Part shown: positions 46,150 through 54,181 of the stretch, one piece after another
Numbering within the stretch: position 1 is the stretch's first letter
Layout of the letters: each line of letters opens with the position of its first letter
From: Parcubacteria bacterium C7867-008
Lineage (GTDB): Bacteria; Patescibacteriota; Minisyncoccia; Phycocordibacterales; Phycocordibacteraceae
Direction of reading: 5' to 3'
Assembly: GCA_001189215.1 (NCBI GenBank)
Contig: LFCR01000004.1
Coordinates: 22,153 to 86,152, forward strand
Length of the DNA stretch: 64,000 nt
Program-made: the position numbers and the translations under genes
The notes under the pieces: model-generated
The model's input: the letters and a program-made list of their open reading frames with translations, nothing else
What the model was told of the DNA's origin: nothing
Databases searched by the model: none

Positions 46150-47133
46150 ATGCGTGGCACAGTAGTTGGAGTATTGCGCGGAGGTCCTTCACGAGAACAT
46201 GAAGTGTCACTTGCCAGTGGTCATGCGATCATCGCCAACCTTCCAAAGGAACACTTCACCGTTCGTGATATATACATAGACAAGCAAGGTGTGTGGCATG
46301 AACGTGGTCGTGTAGTAACACCACATCGTGCACTTCATTCAGTGGATGTGGTCATCGTTGGCCTCCACGGTGAATATGGAGAAGATGGAGAAGTACAGAA
46401 GCTCCTAGAGAAGAGTGGAGTTCCATACACTGGCTCAGATTCCTTTTCATCCTTTGTGGCAATGCACAAAGTGCTTTCTAAGGAGAAAGCAAAGCAAGCT
46501 GGACTCAAGACTCCCAACTACTACTACATAGAAGAAAGTACTCCACCACATCATGTGGAGCAGATGTTGCGTGATGTCGTGCGAACGTACCCACAACCAG
46601 TAGTGGTGAAGCCAACACGATGGGGATCATCCGTAGGGATAACTATGACAACGGGCTATGCACCACTTCATACCGCTGTAACAGGCCTTTTGGCGCAAGG
46701 AGCAGGTGGTGTATTGGTTGAAGAGTATATAAGAGGGACTGAAGCCACCACCGCAGTAGTAGAGGATATGCGTGGAGAGAAACTCTATGCACTACCATCA
46801 ATAGAAATCATTCCGCCAACATCAGACTTCTTCTCTTATCAGGCAAAGTATTCAGGCGACACACGAGAAATCTGCCCAGGACGTTTTGATAAGCAAACAC
46901 ATGCAGAACTAGAGCGTCAGGCACGCCTTATGCACGATGTACTTGGTCTCAGACACTATTCACGTTCTGATTTCATCGTCACCCCTAAAGGTATCTACTA
47001 CCTTGAAACCAATTCTCTGCCTGGATTAGCCCCCGAATGTCTCCTACCCAAGTCCCTTGATGCGGTAGGGGTATCATTCAGTGATTTCCTATCCCACTTG
47101 GTTGCACTTGCACGGGCAGGCAAGAAACGGTAA
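46150..47133 (+). CDS. ddl: D-alanine--D-alanine ligase
   Basis: ATP-grasp with an N-terminal Ddl domain (VLRGGPSREHEVSLASG). Confidence 0.85.
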   Translation: MRGTVVGVLRGGPSREHEVSLASGHAIIANLPKEHFTVRDIYIDKQGVWHERGRVVTPHRALHSVDVVIVGLHGEYGEDGEVQKLLEKSGVPYTGSDSFSSFVAMHKVLSKEKAKQAGLKTPNYYYIEESTPPHHVEQMLRDVVRTYPQPVVVKPTRWGSSVGITMTTGYAPLHTAVTGLLAQGAGGVLVEEYIRGTEATTAVVEDMRGEKLYALPSIEIIPPTSDFFSYQAKYSGDTREICPGRFDKQTHAELERQARLMHDVLGLRHYSRSDFIVTPKGIYYLETNSLPGLAPECLLPKSLDAVGVSFSDFLSHLVALARAGKKR

Positions 47134-47169: not shown

Positions 47170-47214
47170 TGCGGGCCGTTAGCTCAGTTGGTAGAGCGCT
47201 TCATTTGCAATGAA
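47170..47214 (+). pseudogene. truncated tRNA-Ala(UGC) gene, 5' half only (acceptor 5' strand, D-arm, anticodon stem-loop TTTGCAA)
   Basis: GCGGGCCGTTAGCTCAGTTGGTAGAGCGCTTCATTTGCAATGAA. No T-arm or acceptor 3' strand downstream. Overlaps the 3' end of the recombinase gene. Confidence 0.55.
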
Positions 47215-48685
47215 ATAACTTCTCGTCAAAAAGGAAGAAATAGAGACTGTGCTGCTCCCGTGTGTTGAGCTTGGTCCATATAGAATATGGCCTTTCGACC
47301 AACGTCTTTGATTTCTTTAGAGCAGTTTGAAATGGAATCGCAAAGTCCAATTTCGCACCCGATTCTGCCTCCAGTCCCTCTATCTCGCGGGCAGTCTGCT
47401 CCATTTCATGTTCGTATACATCCCTCAACTGTTCTGTCTTTGCTCGATAGGCCATATCAGCTAAGCCTCGTAGTTTCTCCCGTAACTTCTCGATTTTATG
47501 CGCATGAGTTGCCTCACGTTTTCCAACCTCAGCGATCTCCTCTTTCCAAACCGCTCTAAATACCTCCTCTACAACTTTAGAAACAGAAGGTTTGAGCTTC
47601 GAGGCGTGCATAACCTTTAAGAAATTACCTTCCAGCTCGGCTTTCTTTATAGACTTATTTTTAAAAACACATCCGGCAGTTTTACAAAGATAATACGGGT
47701 ATCTGTTACCATTATGGTTCTTACTAAAGGCTGCTGTTAATGATGCGCCACATACGCAGTTAATTAAGCCGCGCAAAGGGAAGTCAGATGATATATCCTG
47801 GCGCACCCATTTTGATACCTGAACCTTTTGAAGCCGCGCCTGAGTGGCTTCATAAGTGTTTGGAGAAATAAGTCCTTTATGGTGGCCCGGTCTGCGGCTA
47901 ACCTCCCATTCGATGTGCTCCACATAACCAGCGTAAAAAGGATCTTCAAGTAAGCTAGTAACTTGGGTGATATAGCTTTCGGGCGCCGGCCTCTTCCAAA
48001 AGCCTTTATCAATTAGATAGCGCGCCATATCAACCTTACGGACTAGCTTTCCATCAGCAAAGGCCTCTAGGGCCGGTTTAAGCACGTCCAAGCCCTCCCT
48101 GGAGGGCTCCAGGACCTTTGTGGTCTTGTTTCTTTGGTAGCCACGTTTTGTACCGCCAATGCAGTAGTAACCCGCCTCCATGCGCGCCTTCATTTTCTGT
48201 ATAACCTGTCTTCTGTTTTGCTCTCGCTCAAGCTGAGCCTGTGCTGCATGTATGGTCTCTATAAACCTAGCCTCGGGACCTTCGTTAAATGCAAAGTTAG
48301 GGCTTTCTGGTCGAGCTCCCCTAGCCTCAATTTCTAACCTGAGTTCAAGATAAGCCTGAGTGTCGCGAGCAATACGCTTCATGTCATCAAACAAAACAAC
48401 GTAACTTCTATGCGGGAACTTATCCAAGTACTTCAAGAGTTGAACAACACCAGCTCTGTTCCTAAAATCCCCGCCGCCCGTGAAGACATCTTGGAATACC
48501 TCGTCAATCTGATAGCTTCTTTGTTGCGCGTACTCTCTACAGCGAGCCTCTTGTGCTTCCATCCCATGACCTTCAGACGCCTGCTTGTCAGAAGAAACCC
48601 TGCAATAGATAACCGCATGCTCCTCAACAGAAGCTGATGTGGGTTGCAGTGTAATGTTACTTTTTTGTTTGGGCTTTTTGGACAT
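47201..48685 (-). CDS. large serine recombinase (integrase)
   Basis: N-terminal resolvase catalytic motif AVIYCRVSSDKQ, recombinase domain, zinc ribbon (CVCG...CKTAGC), and a C-terminal coiled coil. Confidence 0.85.
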   Translation of the reverse strand: MSKKPKQKSNITLQPTSASVEEHAVIYCRVSSDKQASEGHGMEAQEARCREYAQQRSYQIDEVFQDVFTGGGDFRNRAGVVQLLKYLDKFPHRSYVVLFDDMKRIARDTQAYLELRLEIEARGARPESPNFAFNEGPEARFIETIHAAQAQLEREQNRRQVIQKMKARMEAGYYCIGGTKRGYQRNKTTKVLEPSREGLDVLKPALEAFADGKLVRKVDMARYLIDKGFWKRPAPESYITQVTSLLEDPFYAGYVEHIEWEVSRRPGHHKGLISPNTYEATQARLQKVQVSKWVRQDISSDFPLRGLINCVCGASLTAAFSKNHNGNRYPYYLCKTAGCVFKNKSIKKAELEGNFLKVMHASKLKPSVSKVVEEVFRAVWKEEIAEVGKREATHAHKIEKLREKLRGLADMAYRAKTEQLRDVYEHEMEQTAREIEGLEAESGAKLDFAIPFQTALKKSKTLVERPYSIWTKLNTREQHSLYFFLFDEKLFHCK

Positions 48686-48944
48686 AGCTGTCTATTTCAT
48701 TTCGTGTGATCGTTCTGCAAAACTCTTCTAGGTATCGCAGTTGCTCAAGTACTTCTTCATCACTACTTCGATAATCATTAAGGATGTTACGAAAACGCTC
48801 TATTTTGATTATAGACCTGGATTCATGAGCAAACTGAGGCTGCCTGATATCAGCCTCAACGTTTACAAATGTTAACAATGGTTTTTTACGGTTTTTCCGG
48901 GTCATTTGTGTGACCTCGCAAGATAGAAAAGCAAAAAACTCCAA
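48657..48944 (-). CDS. small hypothetical protein upstream of and overlapping the recombinase start (possible regulator or directionality factor)
   Basis: The ORF overlaps the recombinase start by 29 nt. An internal ATG at 48905 gives an 82 aa product. Confidence 0.4.
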   Translation of the reverse strand: MEFFAFLSCEVTQMTRKNRKKPLLTFVNVEADIRQPQFAHESRSIIKIERFRNILNDYRSSDEEVLEQLRYLEEFCRTITRNEIDSYVQKAQTKK

Positions 48945-49157
48945 AACCAGATGCGCCTCTTATGAGGTGCACTTAGTTTTGGAGCCTTACTACTTACGGT
49001 GTCTTCCGTTTGTTGATCACGTCTTGCGACGCGTCCTATTGGCCTGTTTCTTTTCGCCGGCGGGGCCTGCTTAGAGTATAACCCAAAAGTACTGCATGCT
49101 AGGATATGCTAGGAACCAGCGCCTAAACCTACCAATCTGGTAGGCATGGCCAAATAA

Positions 49158-49311
49158 AACCTACGCGAGCAGAAGCGGCCTCATAGGCTGGCTCTACTCG
49201 CGTAGGTCGGGTGTCTCGAAAGGGCCCCGGGTGATGTCCGAAAGGGTGTCATCGCCGGTTCTGTGGGGCCGCTTCTGCGTACCTACAGATACGGATTACA
49301 AAACCTACGCG
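49158..49311. repeat. cluster of direct and inverted repeats: aaacctacgcga x2 direct plus one inverted copy, and a gcagaagcggcc/ggccgcttctgc inverted pair
   Basis: Seen directly, with mutually exclusive pairings. It sits in a 375 bp non-coding gap inside the putative element. Confidence 0.5.
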
Positions 49312-49318
49312 AACTAAT

Positions 49319-49537
49319 ATGAACACAAGAAAAGACGGACTTCTATCCGTAAAGGATTGGACCAGGAATGAGTATGGCCGGAATGCGCTGATCGCGTTAC
49401 TTGGTGGCCTAGTGCTCAATATGTCAGGTTATACGATTGGAGAGGTGTTTGGTTCAATACTGGCTCTGCTTGGGTTTGGATTAGGGGTAATATGGGCCTA
49501 TTTGAAGATAAGCAAGAAGGAGCCGGCATACAAATAA
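49319..49537 (+). CDS. small membrane protein (72 aa)
   Basis: Two TM helices. Confidence 0.4.
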   Translation: MNTRKDGLLSVKDWTRNEYGRNALIALLGGLVLNMSGYTIGEVFGSILALLGFGLGVIWAYLKISKKEPAYK

Positions 49538-49595
49538 CACTTTGACATTTGCAATCAGCATGTCCTTGCAGACTGGCTTCATGAAGCTACAATGA

Positions 49596-50789
49596 GTGTA
49601 CATGGATGCAAACACCCTACTCGAACTTATTCAACTGCTTGAAGCAGACGAAGGGCAGTTTACTATTGGCGCCCGCATAGAAGAGATAAGGACGCTTCTT
49701 TCTCAGAACGATCCAGCACAAAGTACAGCAATATCTACAAAACTAACCGAACTATTTACCGAAATAGCTTCCAGTAGGGCAAACCTTTTTAGCCAGACAG
49801 AGCTCGCAATCCTCAAAGGTCTCGATGCGGTTGACTACTTCGGAAGTGGATTGACCCAAGCACTTACAGAAATTACATCTGGATCAAAGACATACGAGCT
49901 TACATCTCGGCTTAGCGAGTTCTACACAGAGCGCAGTACAAAGTACAACAAGCTAGTCCAAATGAAGAACTCCATGCTGGAGAATGGCTTGGTAGCATAT
50001 GAACAAGAAGAAGATGAAATTGCTCTTACTATCCCAGGAAAGGAGGTGGATGCCTCAGAGCTCGCAGAGCATCTAAAGACATTTTCTGAATTCCTTCGTG
50101 CGGTTCAGGAGTGCACGCTTCCAGCAGGCCAAACGCCAACACCGGCAGAGATTGTGCGTGTAAGTCGAGGTAGCCTGAACTTTTTCGCGCAGGTAGATCC
50201 TGCAACACTAAAGGCTGTTCTGGAGATTATCGGCTCCCTCGCAACAATTTACCTTGCTGGAGTTGATATACGTAAGAAATTCAACTCAAAAACTCCTTTA
50301 AGTGAAGATGAGCAGGCCTCAATAAATCAGCTGGCTGAGACAATAGCGCAGAAGCGGGTGGATGCCTTTGTGGCTGAGACGGCTGCAAAACTGGCTAAGG
50401 ATAATCATGAACTCGGAAATCGAGTAAGTCGTTATTTGAAAATCCTTATAAAGTGGATGCCGTTAGGCATACATCTTGAGGTTGTCGTTGCAAAGACCGT
50501 TGAACCTGTCGACCTTAAAACAAGTGAAGGTAAGCAGATAAGGGCAAAACAGGCGACACTTCTGAAGGTAAATGAGATGTATAGCCTACCTATGGAACAC
50601 CTCAAGCTCCCTGAACCGCAAATAGCCGAGCAAGACGTAGCTATTCCGGCAGAAGAACCAACTGTTCCAATTGAGCCAGAACAAGAAGTGCCTATCGAAC
50701 CAGTGGCGCCCGCTGAACCTGAGAAGCTAGAACCAATGACAGAAAAAACTGTCGAAAACAGTCCTGAGCCAGATGAGCCAAGTGCGTAA
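49596..50789 (+). CDS. hypothetical alpha-helical protein with an acidic Pro/Glu C-terminal tail (397 aa)
   Basis: First gene of the three-gene operon. No catalytic motifs. Confidence 0.55.
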   Translation: MYMDANTLLELIQLLEADEGQFTIGARIEEIRTLLSQNDPAQSTAISTKLTELFTEIASSRANLFSQTELAILKGLDAVDYFGSGLTQALTEITSGSKTYELTSRLSEFYTERSTKYNKLVQMKNSMLENGLVAYEQEEDEIALTIPGKEVDASELAEHLKTFSEFLRAVQECTLPAGQTPTPAEIVRVSRGSLNFFAQVDPATLKAVLEIIGSLATIYLAGVDIRKKFNSKTPLSEDEQASINQLAETIAQKRVDAFVAETAAKLAKDNHELGNRVSRYLKILIKWMPLGIHLEVVVAKTVEPVDLKTSEGKQIRAKQATLLKVNEMYSLPMEHLKLPEPQIAEQDVAIPAEEPTVPIEPEQEVPIEPVAPAEPEKLEPMTEKTVENSPEPDEPSA

Positions 50790-50802
50790 ATGAAATCATT
50801 AA

Positions 50803-51417
50803 ATGATCTGGTATTACCACCATCATCCTGAAGTTCTTTCGCTCGTAAAGGATTTGGCTACGATATCAGCGGCCATAATTGCTTCATACGTTGCTCTTGC
50901 AGGTTTAGGTGCTTGGAAAAGACAATTGCACGGAAAGGAAGACTATCAATTGGCGAGACGTTATTTACGCGAGGTATATCGTTTGCGCAACGGTCTTAAA
51001 TCAGTAAGAAATCCTTATATATCAGTAGGAGAAATGCATGCAGCATTGAAGGAAAGCGGTGAAGAAAACCCAGACCCTATCGCCGATAGAAAGAAAACAG
51101 ACTTCGCTGTCTACAGCCGAAGATGGGAAGAAGTAAAGCAGGCGTCAGTTGCTCTTGATGTCGAGCTTCTCGAAGCAGAGGTACTCTGGGGCAAAGAAGC
51201 TGTTTCTAAGCAGAAGCCCTTGCGTCAAAAATCCAACGAGCTATTTAGTGCATTACAACAGCATCTAAATGAACGTCCGCGTGTGAATATAGATGATTTA
51301 CTGTACGACGCAGGCGATAAGGATAAATTCACTCTTCAAGTTGAGGAAGCTATAAAGCCCATAGAAGAATACTTGGCCCCGCATTTGAAAATAGAAGGAA
51401 GAATCTCAACAAGCTAA
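50803..51417 (+). CDS. hypothetical membrane-anchored protein (204 aa, one N-terminal TM)
   Basis: Its stop overlaps the next start (ATGA). Confidence 0.55.
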   Translation: MIWYYHHHPEVLSLVKDLATISAAIIASYVALAGLGAWKRQLHGKEDYQLARRYLREVYRLRNGLKSVRNPYISVGEMHAALKESGEENPDPIADRKKTDFAVYSRRWEEVKQASVALDVELLEAEVLWGKEAVSKQKPLRQKSNELFSALQQHLNERPRVNIDDLLYDAGDKDKFTLQVEEAIKPIEEYLAPHLKIEGRISTS

Positions 51418-52151
51418 TGATTTCAAGAACCCGTCTCGACCGGATCGCTTTTCTTTCGTTTCAAAATGCTTTGCGTCTGCATCATGATGCAATAATCCTC
51501 TTTAAGGAGAAGAGTTATCCATCGGCTTTTTTCCTTTCAATACTTGCGCAGGAAGAGATAGGGAAAATGCACCTTGTTAATGATCAGTCATGGCGTTCTG
51601 GAGAAAATGAAGCTGGGTTGGCTGAAATCAAGGACGAAGTCAAAAAGAAAAAATACCAGGCAGAATTGGAGAGTATGGAAGAATATGTAATTAAGGCTCT
51701 GTATCAACATCCACTTAAGCAAGGACACTTTTATCGTAATTCTCCAGCGGAAGAGCTGTGGATTCCGAAGAAAGGGAAACTCAGAAAGGAGTACCAAGGC
51801 ATCTGGGATGGAATGCTTGAGGCAAGAAAACAAAACGCTGTGTATGTTGGCTTTGCAAGAAGGAGAGGGAAGATAGATACCACTAGACTTCACCATCCTT
51901 GGGAAATTACGAACGGAATGGCCGCAAGTCATATCACCAGAGTAAATGATTATCTATTGGTTTTTGGGTTGGGTTTAAGATATACGTCCTATGCGTATGA
52001 GAACGAGGAAATAGTTTCAATGATTAAGCATAGACGCTTTTTGAAGGAGATTGCTGCTAGTTGGATGCGTAGCGGTACGTTAGCTCAGAAGGAGATAGAG
52101 AAGCTCGAAAGGGCATTAAAGGATCCAATAGTTTCTGACGCTCGATTTTAA
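51417..52151 (+). CDS. AbiV-like abortive-infection family protein (putative)
   Basis: N-terminal FQNALRLHHDAIILFKEKSYPSAFFLSILAQEEIGK resembles the AbiV family signature. Assignment is from memory of the family alignment. Confidence 0.4.
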   Translation: MISRTRLDRIAFLSFQNALRLHHDAIILFKEKSYPSAFFLSILAQEEIGKMHLVNDQSWRSGENEAGLAEIKDEVKKKKYQAELESMEEYVIKALYQHPLKQGHFYRNSPAEELWIPKKGKLRKEYQGIWDGMLEARKQNAVYVGFARRRGKIDTTRLHHPWEITNGMAASHITRVNDYLLVFGLGLRYTSYAYENEEIVSMIKHRRFLKEIAASWMRSGTLAQKEIEKLERALKDPIVSDARF

Positions 52152-52301
52152 ATCCTCTTCTGTGGTAGCAGATGGGAGAAATCCTTAGTGTTCCGCAAGG
52201 GCTAATTGCAATGGAATGCACGTTTGATAGTAGTCCCAGAAGCGAGATAGATAGCTTTTTAAGGAGTTCAAAGTCTTGATTGATATGTCCACCCAAACAA
52301 G

Positions 52302-52330
52302 AAAAGACCCCGCAAGGGTCTTTTCTTGTT
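52302..52330 (+). terminator. hairpin aagaccc-cgcaa-gggtctt plus ttcttgttt
   Basis: Perfect 7 bp stem plus T-run. Confidence 0.65.
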
Positions 52331-52355
52331 TCAATCACAACCATATACTTATGAC

Positions 52356-52862
52356 ATGGAAGGCCCTCCCCCAAAGCTCGATAAGCAACCTGTAAACTCA
52401 GAAGATATAGCAAACCCGAACAGAATATTTGAGTGGGGTTTTATGCCAGACAATACTGATGTTCCAACAAAACCAGAGAATGTATACAGACAAATCAAGG
52501 TAGAAGGAGTCGATGATCTTAATGAGAGTGGTGTGGTACGAAATGCAGGAAGTGCAGGAAAAGGACGAGTACGTAAATACGGAGACCGTGTGTATTGGAC
52601 ACAAGGTAAAGAGGGAGAATTTCATAATGTACAACCAGGCCACGCGGTACTTGAAGCACCGCTATCTGTTGTAAGTTCCCGTGTGGTGACTGCAGAGGAC
52701 ATCATTGGTATTCATGTACGCAATGAAGCAGGAGAGGTTGAGAACCGCGCCCGCGCCATACCTGAAGTAGCTGTTGATGCATCAGGTACTGAGCAGAAAC
52801 CAGAAGAAGGTTCTAATCTAGAAGATGTTCGAAATAGGCTTGGTTTGTCTCCAAAGGAGTAA
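52356..52862 (+). CDS. hypothetical protein (168 aa)
   Basis: The track ORF starts at a TTG inside the terminator; it is trimmed to the ATG at 52356. Confidence 0.45.
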   Translation: MEGPPPKLDKQPVNSEDIANPNRIFEWGFMPDNTDVPTKPENVYRQIKVEGVDDLNESGVVRNAGSAGKGRVRKYGDRVYWTQGKEGEFHNVQPGHAVLEAPLSVVSSRVVTAEDIIGIHVRNEAGEVENRARAIPEVAVDASGTEQKPEEGSNLEDVRNRLGLSPKE

Positions 52863-52872
52863 TTTAGATTCT

Positions 52873-53055
52873 ATGCACACTGAATTAATAGCTGGAGCAG
52901 CATATTTGTTTAATTCAGGTCTACGCGAAGGAATGAATGATCCCATTCACGCGCTGTATACAATGGTTGGTATTGCGGTGCTGGTTGTGGCTGGAATCTC
53001 CGTTGGAGTGTATAGGAACAGACAAAAAAGAATGAAGAAACGTGATTCCTGGTAG
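52873..53055 (+). CDS. small membrane protein (60 aa)
   Basis: Single TM plus basic tail. Confidence 0.35.
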   Translation: MHTELIAGAAYLFNSGLREGMNDPIHALYTMVGIAVLVVAGISVGVYRNRQKRMKKRDSW

Positions 53056-53056
53056 A

Positions 53057-54181
53057 TCAAGCGCGCTTGAATATAAAGCGTGAAAGTACAAGAAAGCTTT
53101 CAACAGCAATAATGAGCGCAGCAATTGCCTGCGCCAATATGTACCAAACTCCTAGGTAGTGCACGAGAAGGAATACAATTCCCGTATTTAGAACAAGATT
53201 AATGGAAGCAACAAGCAAGTGTAAGGGAACTTGTATTGCAGTAGATTTTTGATGCTTGTAGTTGAAGGTCCAGTACTTGTGGAGAAGGAAGTTAGCTATT
53301 CCTGAGGTTGCAAAAGCAACAATTGATGAGATTAGATACCAGACATGGGAGATGTCGGTAAGGAGGTAGAGGACAGTAACATTAACCAACACGCTTATAG
53401 CTCCTGTAGTGAGGAAACGTAATGCCTTAGGAACCTCTTTACCCATGGGGGCGCTATGTATACCAAGTCTGAAGAACACGATCGCTAGGAGGCAATATAT
53501 GCCATGTCTGGCACGTATCTTCTTTCCTTCCGTGACGGTACGCGGATGGTAGGTGATTGGCACTTGAGCAACGGTACCTGCGTGCTGGAGGATATATGTC
53601 ATCTCAATAGCATCAAATACGAAGTCGTCACTAGGAGCTTCTAGGAGTGCTGGTATGCGCTCTCGAGGGAAGACTTTGTAGCAACACGGAACGTCCTTAA
53701 ATGAGCTACTGAAGGCAAGATTATAAAACGAGGAAACAACACGACCTCCAAAAAACAGCATGCGATTGCGATGAGCATCTTCTTCGGTAAGAGTGCGGTA
53801 TCCAAACACGGTATCTACCTTTCCTTCAATGATCGGAGCAAGTAAAGAAGGATACTGACCTGGATCAATCTCAAGGTCTCCATCTTGAATGATGCAGTAT
53901 GCACCGGTTGCATTACGAAGACCTTCCTTAACCGCACCTCCTTTGCCGAGGTTCTGGGGAAGATACACAACCTGTACGGTATTCCCTGCATCACCAGATG
54001 AAAGTGTACCCAATGCTGCGTGTGTTTCTTCGTTAGATCCATCATCCACAACAATAATCTCTTTGGACCAGCCAGAAGGAAGTCCTGTTGCAATGACTCG
54101 TTCAACAACCAATGCAATAGTGTCAGCTTCATTGAAGCAAGGAATGATTACACTCAGGAGTGTTTTCGGAGTGTTACTCAT
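53057..54181 (-). CDS. family 2 glycosyltransferase (Dpm1/GtrB-like) fused to a GtrA-like C-terminal TM domain
   Basis: LSVIIPCFNEA...VVDDGS GT2 motifs. C-terminal 4 TM GtrA-like region. Confidence 0.75.
   Translation of the reverse strand: MSNTPKTLLSVIIPCFNEADTIALVVERVIATGLPSGWSKEIIVVDDGSNEETHAALGTLSSGDAGNTVQVVYLPQNLGKGGAVKEGLRNATGAYCIIQDGDLEIDPGQYPSLLAPIIEGKVDTVFGYRTLTEEDAHRNRMLFFGGRVVSSFYNLAFSSSFKDVPCCYKVFPRERIPALLEAPSDDFVFDAIEMTYILQHAGTVAQVPITYHPRTVTEGKKIRARHGIYCLLAIVFFRLGIHSAPMGKEVPKALRFLTTGAISVLVNVTVLYLLTDISHVWYLISSIVAFATSGIANFLLHKYWTFNYKHQKSTAIQVPLHLLVASINLVLNTGIVFLLVHYLGVWYILAQAIAALIIAVESFLVLSRFIFKRA

Follow-up and report, generated by a model that had tools for sequence, protein, structure and literature searches.

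A 64-kb stretch of the metagenome-assembled genome (MAG) Parcubacteria bacterium C7867-008, whose host lineage is Patescibacteria, raises the question of how an integrated element carrying a large serine recombinase (LSR) came to lie beside a tRNA-Ala(UGC) gene that seems to be cut in two. The whole stretch is called the window below. The earlier note on this DNA had proposed that the element integrated into the anticodon loop and left the tRNA unrestored. The analysis described here points to another answer, to which we assign a probability of roughly 85%: the element would have been placed at the 3' end of tRNA-Ala by its own LSR through the crossover core GTCCAC, the LSR gene would be split by this event, and the apparent break in the tRNA would be a deletion of 121 bp in the deposited assembly. 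The underlying proposal that an integrated element is mobilised by an LSR and tied to tRNA-Ala is supported by the protein domains and by the comparison of attachment (att) sites, and at the level of DNA the mechanism appears well supported by comparison across elements. The features are listed in Table 1.

The apparent break in the tRNA-Ala gene

The window indeed contains a 5' fragment of tRNA-Ala(UGC), although it measures 42 nt instead of the 44 nt given before and the loss of the remainder is specific to this assembly. The divergence had been located in the anticodon loop, but the match to tRNA extends past it and includes 4 nt on the 3' side of the anticodon stem. ARAGORN called no tRNA at the position of the fragment, and the Rfam tRNA model gave a partial match of 25.5 bits, under the threshold of 29 bits. 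Across the 64-kb window no tRNA 3' half (T-arm motif and 3' strand of the acceptor) was found except within three intact tRNAs. At the junction the window reads ...GCAATGAA directly followed by ATAACTTCTCG (right side also given as ATAACTTC).

Two further assemblies cover the same population, JGI 3300001199 contig J055_10000359 (L005) and Logan contig SRR2043728_25785 (L006). On the right side of position 47214 both agree with the window, at 14,937 of 14,937 and 11,121 of 11,121 bases, respectively. L005 spans a complete, intact tRNA-Ala and is otherwise 100% identical to the window, while the first bases of L006 fall in the T arm, and most of the 121 bp absent from the window are present in it. 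An intact tRNA 3' half elsewhere, named in the earlier note as the sign of an assembly artefact, is thus present in the same population, and the tRNA cannot be regarded as left unrestored. The 42 nt of the window are identical to the start of the intact 73-nt tRNA in L005, in L008 and in L089, a JGI contig (J055_10000581) of the sister species C7867-007. The absent 121 bp comprise 31 nt from the 3' part of the tRNA, with the attL core GTCCAC among them, followed by 89 nt of the element which encode LSR codons 491-522 and a hairpin. With the tRNA 3' part restored a G3:U70 pair is obtained, and such a pair is typical of tRNA-Ala.

The sister species co-occurs with that of the window and is represented by MAG C7867-007 (GenBank LFCQ01000003.1, L007), the closest relative genome, whose Ddl is 89% identical to that of the window. 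In this MAG tRNA-Ala is cut at the identical base with 45 bp missing (L007 11020-11080), and the contig continues after the cut tRNA into a different island; in L089, unlike in the deposited MAG, the tRNA-Ala of the sister species is intact. An exact stretch of 132 nt, which begins at window position 47116 and extends to the tRNA's last base, is common to both species. Where genomes share a repeat, a de Bruijn graph yields breaks that track the k-mer size of the assembler. Both deposited MAGs break exactly 99 nt into the shared 132 nt (implied k = 100, k-1 = 99), the JGI contigs end 79 nt into it or start 79 nt before its end (implied k about 80), and the Logan contig ends about 31 nt into it (implied k about 31). 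Because the tRNA is intact in other assemblies of the population and the offsets of the breaks depend on k, both the shortened tRNA and the final four codons (FHCK*) of the 494-amino-acid (aa) LSR open reading frame (ORF) are, judged from the assembled contigs, artefacts of the deposited assembly. The deletion would have arisen when the MAG was assembled across the 132-nt repeat common to the sister species.

If the 121-bp deletion were instead genuine, either in a sub-population or in the true genome, the element would be immobilised and tRNA-Ala(UGC) inactivated. The junction does stand in the deposited contig without undetermined bases (Ns), and the left end shared with the deletion of the sister MAG could hint at a deletion hotspot. 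That left end, however, is the one lying exactly k-1 nt into the repeat, with other assemblers breaking at offsets of their own, and contigs of both species span the intact tRNA or, in the case of L006, carry most of the missing bases. Moreover, a scan of the JGI metagenome contigs for tRNA-Ala diverging after ...AATGAA returned only a chance match inside a coding sequence. The Ddl-tRNA-Ala(UGC) arrangement, surveyed in related species, was present with an intact tRNA in 69 loci, and loss of the tRNA would probably be deleterious. A genuine deletion is therefore considered improbable.

Attachment sites and the split recombinase gene

The 494-aa LSR ORF on the opposite strand (47201-48685) had been recognised correctly. 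It contains Resolvase (PF00239, 4.5e-22), Recombinase (PF07508, 2.6e-5) and Zn_ribbon_recom (PF13408, 1.2e-5) domains, all of which pass their cutoffs. In the family alignment (A2) the catalytic residues R29, S31, S32 and Q35 are nearly invariant and D100, D101, R104 and R107 are invariant. The last codons of the ORF overlap the break in the window as had been described, but these are the four artefactual codons mentioned above. In the integrated state, with the 121 bp restored, the ORF encodes 540 aa, runs antisense through the whole tRNA and has its stop in the D-loop, and its tail reads ...NVD-RTGFEPATSSLQMKRSTN.

The family is conserved up to ...RLFE.F....V(D/E), and the V-D codons (GTGGAC) are the core GTCCAC on the other strand. 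Of the best 120 homologues, 95 pass straight from V(D/E) into a terminal antisense T-arm peptide, and in three (P0011, P0054 and P0108) a native tail is contiguous with the LSR. P0011 (contig L093, 556 aa) runs past V(D/E) with IAHKSLNPIKSYLSRFWLYYQSSPALQNALANA and is followed by a convergent cargo gene, an arrangement that would be expected for the unintegrated form. The matching tail of the window LSR lies at the far end of the element, where it abuts the distal core, and matching tail peptides are located at the far end of L091, L092, L094 and L102 too. Joining both parts gives a reconstructed free-state LSR of 555 aa, against 556 aa for P0011. Since the tail is conserved through synonymous changes, e.g. 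CGC vs AGG for Arg in YLSRFW, selection on the protein is argued. By this comparison, attP is inside the LSR ORF, and integration detaches its last 33 codons, which are replaced by codons antisense to the tRNA. The exchange of the tail might alter the activity or the stability of the LSR. In the literature searched, no serine integrase was described whose attP falls within its own ORF; the nearest concept was the integration-dependent immunity of mycobacteriophages (PMC8092301).

The native tails end in ...ALANA, ...ALAEH and ...ILEDA, and the host tmRNA tag (tmRNA at L094 10558-10963) ends in ...YALA. A role of the native tail (52185-52200) as an ssrA-like degron was considered and rejected, as the resemblance to the tmRNA tag is too weak to claim.

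The att sites were compared in six elements, namely that of the window and L005, L091, L092, L093, L094 and L102. The core GTCCAC is found at the tRNA 3' end (in attL, lost in the deletion of the window) and at the distal end of the element in attR; it takes in the acceptor 3' strand, the discriminator base and one further base, and the crossover dinucleotide presumably lies somewhere within it. In L091, L092 and L102 the GTCCAC of the tRNA 3' end recurs 6-8 kb off, with a terminator hairpin directly after it, and in L094, where a transfer-messenger RNA (tmRNA) is the target, the same layout is found with the core CTCCAC. The cores of attL and attR as well as the P arms are kept in the window and L005, L091, L092, L094 and L102, with (G/C)TCCAC as the core. 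A P arm of the form GGTTCRAA-N14-core was present in all six elements. The B arm of attB is the T-arm and acceptor of the tRNA, with GGTTCGAA 9 nt from the core; GGTTCGAW-N9-core is found in tRNA-Ala (two variants) and in tmRNA, where the motif is the T-loop. Hence the spacer of the P arm is 5 bp longer than that of the tRNA and tmRNA B arms (14 vs 9 nt). This agrees with the published geometry of serine integrase sites, in which attP holds the motif of the zinc-ribbon domain (ZD) 5 bp farther from the centre than attB does (Rutherford et al. 2013, PMC3783163). The layout of attR in the window is identical to that of the contiguous attP in L093.

Reconstruction of attP joins 52240-52292 to the P' side at L005 79-130, so that its junction runs from window ...52286 through GTCCAC to ATTAGAGGAGTC...; in the reconstructed attB, tRNA-Ala ...ACGGTCCAC is joined to CCAAACAAGAAAAG.... 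The sequence right of the attR core, CCAAACAAGAAAAGACCCCGCAAGGGTCTTTTCTTGTT, closely resembles the flank of unoccupied tRNA-Ala genes in relatives, e.g. ACACAAAAGAAAGAGCCCTCTTGGGCTCTTTCTTGTT in L012, and the unoccupied tRNA-Ala of relatives together with its terminator resembles the reconstructed attB. The strong terminator that had been noticed just outside the right end corresponds to the hairpin at the B' side of attB. It is the terminator of tRNA-Ala, now 5.2 kb away from the tRNA and directly after attR; a consensus terminator scan did not list this hairpin, and direct folding reveals it clearly. From these sites the integrative element is predicted to occupy window 47215-52292, about 5.17 kb with the missing bases restored. 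It would have been inserted by its own LSR through recombination of attP with attB at the last bases of tRNA-Ala(UGC), and the tRNA stays intact because the crossover sits at its end. The hairpin in the 3' coding region of the LSR, now located after the tRNA, may substitute as a terminator. This P' hairpin does not seem to be a substitute throughout the family: it is strong in the tRNA-Ala subgroup, but no equivalent inverted repeat was seen by eye, in unfolded sequence, in L094 and L102.

Two observations concern the region downstream of tRNA-Ala. From the right end of the element to the glycosyltransferase gene (52293-53060) no homology was found to L007 11066-14977; the window has a 168-aa ORF here, and L007 has a 3.9-kb island with five unknown genes and no recombinase. 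As these right flanks are unrelated, the flank of tRNA-Ala appears to be a general variable hotspot. Furthermore, in L013, L032, L046, L047, L061, L058 and L009 part of the tRNA 3' end (...GTAGGGCCGTACAGGATTCGAA...) is repeated in inverted orientation downstream of the terminator, 40-70 nt after tRNA-Ala, and forms a long inverted repeat with the acceptor and T arm.

The integrated copy might alternatively be a decayed island that became fixed in the lineage, with an LSR that is domesticated or dead and ends that are mere relics. Decay does occur at this site, as shown by remnants of the LSR 3' end beside tRNA-Ala in L016, L023 and L067, and for the window copy no excised form was seen and the integrated LSR is without its native tail. 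The LSR of L005 is nevertheless full-length and keeps all invariant residues of the family, the two att sites are intact, as is the displaced tail ORF down to its stop, synonymous substitutions have left the tail peptide conserved, and the closest relative is without the element, implying recent gain or loss. We regard a decayed island as quite unlikely. Integration in the anticodon loop between paired palindromic cores (47204-47216 and 52205-52217) with a dead tRNA, as first suggested by the truncated tRNA of the window and by a 12-mer recurring 5 kb away, can practically be dismissed, since the tRNA is intact in another assembly of the identical population, homologous elements join at GTCCAC at the extreme 3' end of the tRNA, the right end has no displaced 3' half of the tRNA, and the 12-mer is at chance level and inside conserved coding sequence. 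In numbers, the 12-mer (copies at 47205-47216 and 52206-52217) had three matches with at most one mismatch against 1.0 expected, and 5 of 100 shuffles did as well. Its right copy, TTGCAATGGAAT, represents the codons I-P-L-Q of the displaced LSR tail, and the true attR core lies about 75 bp further right; the 12-mers are therefore ruled out as crossover cores by the shuffle test and by their position in the conserved tail, off the element boundary.

Several points weigh against insertion at the tRNA 3' end combined with an assembly deletion. For the exact strain no empty site was obtained, as a look-up of the flanking proteins led back to the JGI and Logan contigs alone, and an excised circle of the exact element was likewise not found; the boundaries therefore rest on homologous elements and on relatives. 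Symmetric sequence conservation is weak in the P' and B' arms. Neither of the MAG deletions has its right edge at a k-dependent position. As the artefact call rests on assembled contigs, a minor genuine deletion variant may exist in the population.

LOOT RNA, small genes and cargo

The content of the interval was as described before: a small ORF overlapping the start of the LSR, a small membrane protein and a three-gene operon. The region reported as repeat-dense is present too, and was identified as a LOOT RNA (Rfam RF03000). In the window this RNA and the LSR are divergent, and 66 nt separate it from the first cargo gene downstream. Overall the layout consists of a backbone, in which the small conserved ORF precedes the LSR, and a divergent LOOT RNA that leads into variable cargo.

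LOOT was present in every full element examined, always on the same strand as and immediately upstream of the first cargo gene, at a distance of 34-66 nt in six of seven loci; in L091 it overlaps the called start of that gene. Among the six loci of the window's LSR family, five have LOOT and the integrase in divergent orientation, and in L091 the two are co-directional. Compensatory changes were found for 25 of 38 pairs (six copies). With a covariance model derived from six copies, 1.32 Mb of related Parcubacteria loci (88 sources) were searched, and matches with E < 0.1 were obtained only in loci with LSR elements and in L029, which carries a distant LSR type. Weak matches occurred in L008 (13.0 bits, E 0.11) and L009 (11.1 bits, E 0.49). 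The RNA of the window agrees with LOOT as catalogued by the Weinberg group, as it scores above the family threshold and the covarying helices are common to both. In the literature searched, LOOT is listed only as a metagenome-derived family without stated function or genetic context, whereas here it is placed in serine-integrase elements of Parcubacteria, directly upstream of the first cargo gene.

The gene directly after LOOT usually encodes a small membrane protein; read from the sequence, the first genes downstream of LOOT in L029, L091, L093, L094 and L102 have a hydrophobic segment at their start or further in. The 13-nt sequence AAAACCTACGCGA occurs as a direct repeat at 49156-49168 and 49300-49312, i.e. 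the 5' strand of the long LOOT helix recurs just before the start codon of the membrane protein. Analogous repeats of at least 11 nt are found in L091 and L029 and are absent from the other four loci. The 13-nt repeat could permit an alternative pairing.

The 82-aa product of the small ORF is conserved across the element family, with the motif EEYRKILNDY..SD..V.ERL.YLE.FCR, and is a possible candidate for a regulator or a directionality factor. The third cargo gene encodes a HEPN abortive-infection protein of the AbiV family, with 70.3 bits (2.7e-19, cutoff 27.1) for HEPN_AbiV PF18728, 61 bits (cutoff 27) for TIGR04498 and 8e-8 in PADLOC, and the cargo is hence predicted to be of a phage-defence type. 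For the small ORF, the membrane protein and cargo genes 1 and 2, nothing significant was found in Pfam, PADLOC, NCBIfam and PHROGs. Neither the LSR alone nor the family alignment revealed relatives among the viral contigs of IMG/VR, and there is therefore no sign that the element is a phage.

Table 1. Features of the element and its surroundings (window positions unless a locus is named)
Feature	Position	Strand	Evidence or description
tRNA-Ala(UGC) 5' fragment, 42 nt	47173-47214	+	acceptor 5' strand, D arm, anticodon arm including 4 nt of its 3' strand
Putative assembly junction	47214/47215	none	121 bp absent, present in L005
attL			tRNA 3' end + GTCCAC + element; absent from the window through the 121-bp deletion
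LSR gene, codons 1-490	47215-48685	-	Pfam domains, 540-aa ORF in L005, alignment A2
Small ORF, 82 aa, stop overlaps LSR start	48657-48905	-	homologues in the same position in L092, L093, L094, L102
LOOT RNA (Rfam RF03000)	49120-49253	+	61.5 bits (gathering threshold 46.4), E 3.6e-10
Small membrane protein, 72 aa, first gene after LOOT	49319-49537	+	ORF list
Cargo gene 1, 395 aa	49602-50789	+	ORF; gene calls in L005, L006
Cargo gene 2, 204 aa, stop overlaps AbiV start	50803-51417	+	ORF
Cargo gene 3, AbiV-family HEPN abortive-infection protein	51417-52151	+	Pfam, TIGR04498, PADLOC
Displaced LSR 3' end, 33 codons ISIKTLNSLKSYLSRFWDYYQTCIPLQLALAEH + stop	52185-52286	-	matches contiguous C-terminus of P0011; abuts distal core
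attR	52265-52292	+	P arm motif AGTTCAAA 52265-52272, 14-nt spacer, core GTCCAC 52287-52292
tRNA-Ala Rho-independent terminator (B' side of attB)	52295-52331	+	folding free energy (dG) -22.9 kcal/mol, z -7.2
LOOT RNA in L029	9331-9468
LOOT RNA in L091	4168-4291
LOOT RNA in L092	9349-9458
LOOT RNA in L093	407-525
LOOT RNA in L094	7174-7292
LOOT RNA in L102	8898-9019

Distribution, comparison with known systems and meaning

At least 30 different antisense hexapeptides occur among the homologues, which implies that many different tRNAs and tmRNAs serve as targets. Elements with different cargo were found in L091 (LSR 62% identical to that of the window, site tRNA-Ala), in L092 (47%, same Ddl-tRNA-Ala site) and in L102 (about 45%, a tRNA with the UGC anticodon-loop sequence). 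In addition, a full or partial copy of the window's LSR type is present in L056, one of the 69 tRNA-Ala(UGC) loci. In L094 (9001-10963) the LSR P0016, which occurs in about 20 contigs, is integrated in the 3' end of tmRNA beside smpB, and its cargo includes SMEK_N/DUF2326, a trypsin-like protease and a MerR-family protein.

In L016, L023 (11070-11300) and L067 only the LSR 3' end is left beside tRNA-Ala, over at least 75 nt (about 230 in L023); these remnants include the hairpin encoding AARLFE.FAA, and the rest of the element is gone. The remnant hairpin may have been kept as a terminator of the tRNA transcript. A second, distant LSR type follows tRNA-Ala(UGC) in L011, L029, L062 and L068, its ORF also ending inside the tRNA, in a different reading frame. 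In L029 (2991-4683) this LSR has 554 aa and occurs together with a primase/helicase-like gene and a LOOT RNA.

The LSR shares the architecture of Resolvase, Recombinase and zinc-ribbon domains with the integrases of Listeria A118/LI, phiC31, Bxb1 and SPbeta (SprA). Short att sites with few identical bases and the 5-bp shift in attP are likewise common to these serine integrases of phages and integrative and conjugative elements (PMC3783163). In contrast to them, the target here is the 3' end of a tRNA or tmRNA rather than a protein-coding gene, the integrase ORF contains attP and its C-terminus changes upon integration, the backbone includes a conserved structured RNA, and the element is only about 5 kb long, neither phage nor conjugative, and hosted by Patescibacteria. 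Use of tRNA or tmRNA genes by serine integrases was unreported according to Mageeney et al. 2020 (PMC7192596), who predicted it for only 14 of 297 cases and called for experimental proof.

Islands with tyrosine integrases of the Islander/TIGER type resemble the element in their integration at t(m)RNA 3' ends, with the gene remaining functional, in the adjacent integrase gene and in their frequent defence cargo. The recombinase family is unrelated, however, and only a 6-bp core is found here instead of a long identity block or a duplicated tRNA 3' segment. An attP within coding sequence, with C-termini that differ between the free and the integrated state, is also known from integration-dependent immunity of mycobacteriophages, where the integrase is a tyrosine integrase and the affected gene is the repressor (PMC8092301). 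The split gene here is that of a serine integrase and its replacement tail is antisense tRNA; the same differences apply to Myxococcus Mx8 and Sulfolobus SSV1. Comparable C-terminal switching is found in Mx8 intP/intX and SSV1 int, which are tyrosine integrases.

As far as the literature searched shows, the element family is apparently undescribed. The elements might represent a class of small cassette carriers of Patescibacteria, based on serine integrases which use the T-loop and acceptor as attB, in which the exchange of the tail acts as a switch of activity, stability or directionality and LOOT regulates the cargo or the small membrane protein; this broader idea is tentative and, as a whole, we would sooner bet against it.

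Taken together, these results suggest that tRNA-Ala(UGC) is unbroken in C7867-008 as well as in C7867-007, and that a false signal is removed, both deposited records carrying small assembly deletions. Across multiple loci, they give evidence at the sequence level that tRNA and tmRNA genes can serve as targets of large serine integrases. The att sites appear to follow the known attP/attB geometry by way of the universally conserved T-loop, which could aid the design of integrases with a broad host range. The element further offers an example of a serine integrase whose own gene is split by integration, and the orphan LOOT RNA is given both a host phylum and a genetic setting in which its function can be tested.

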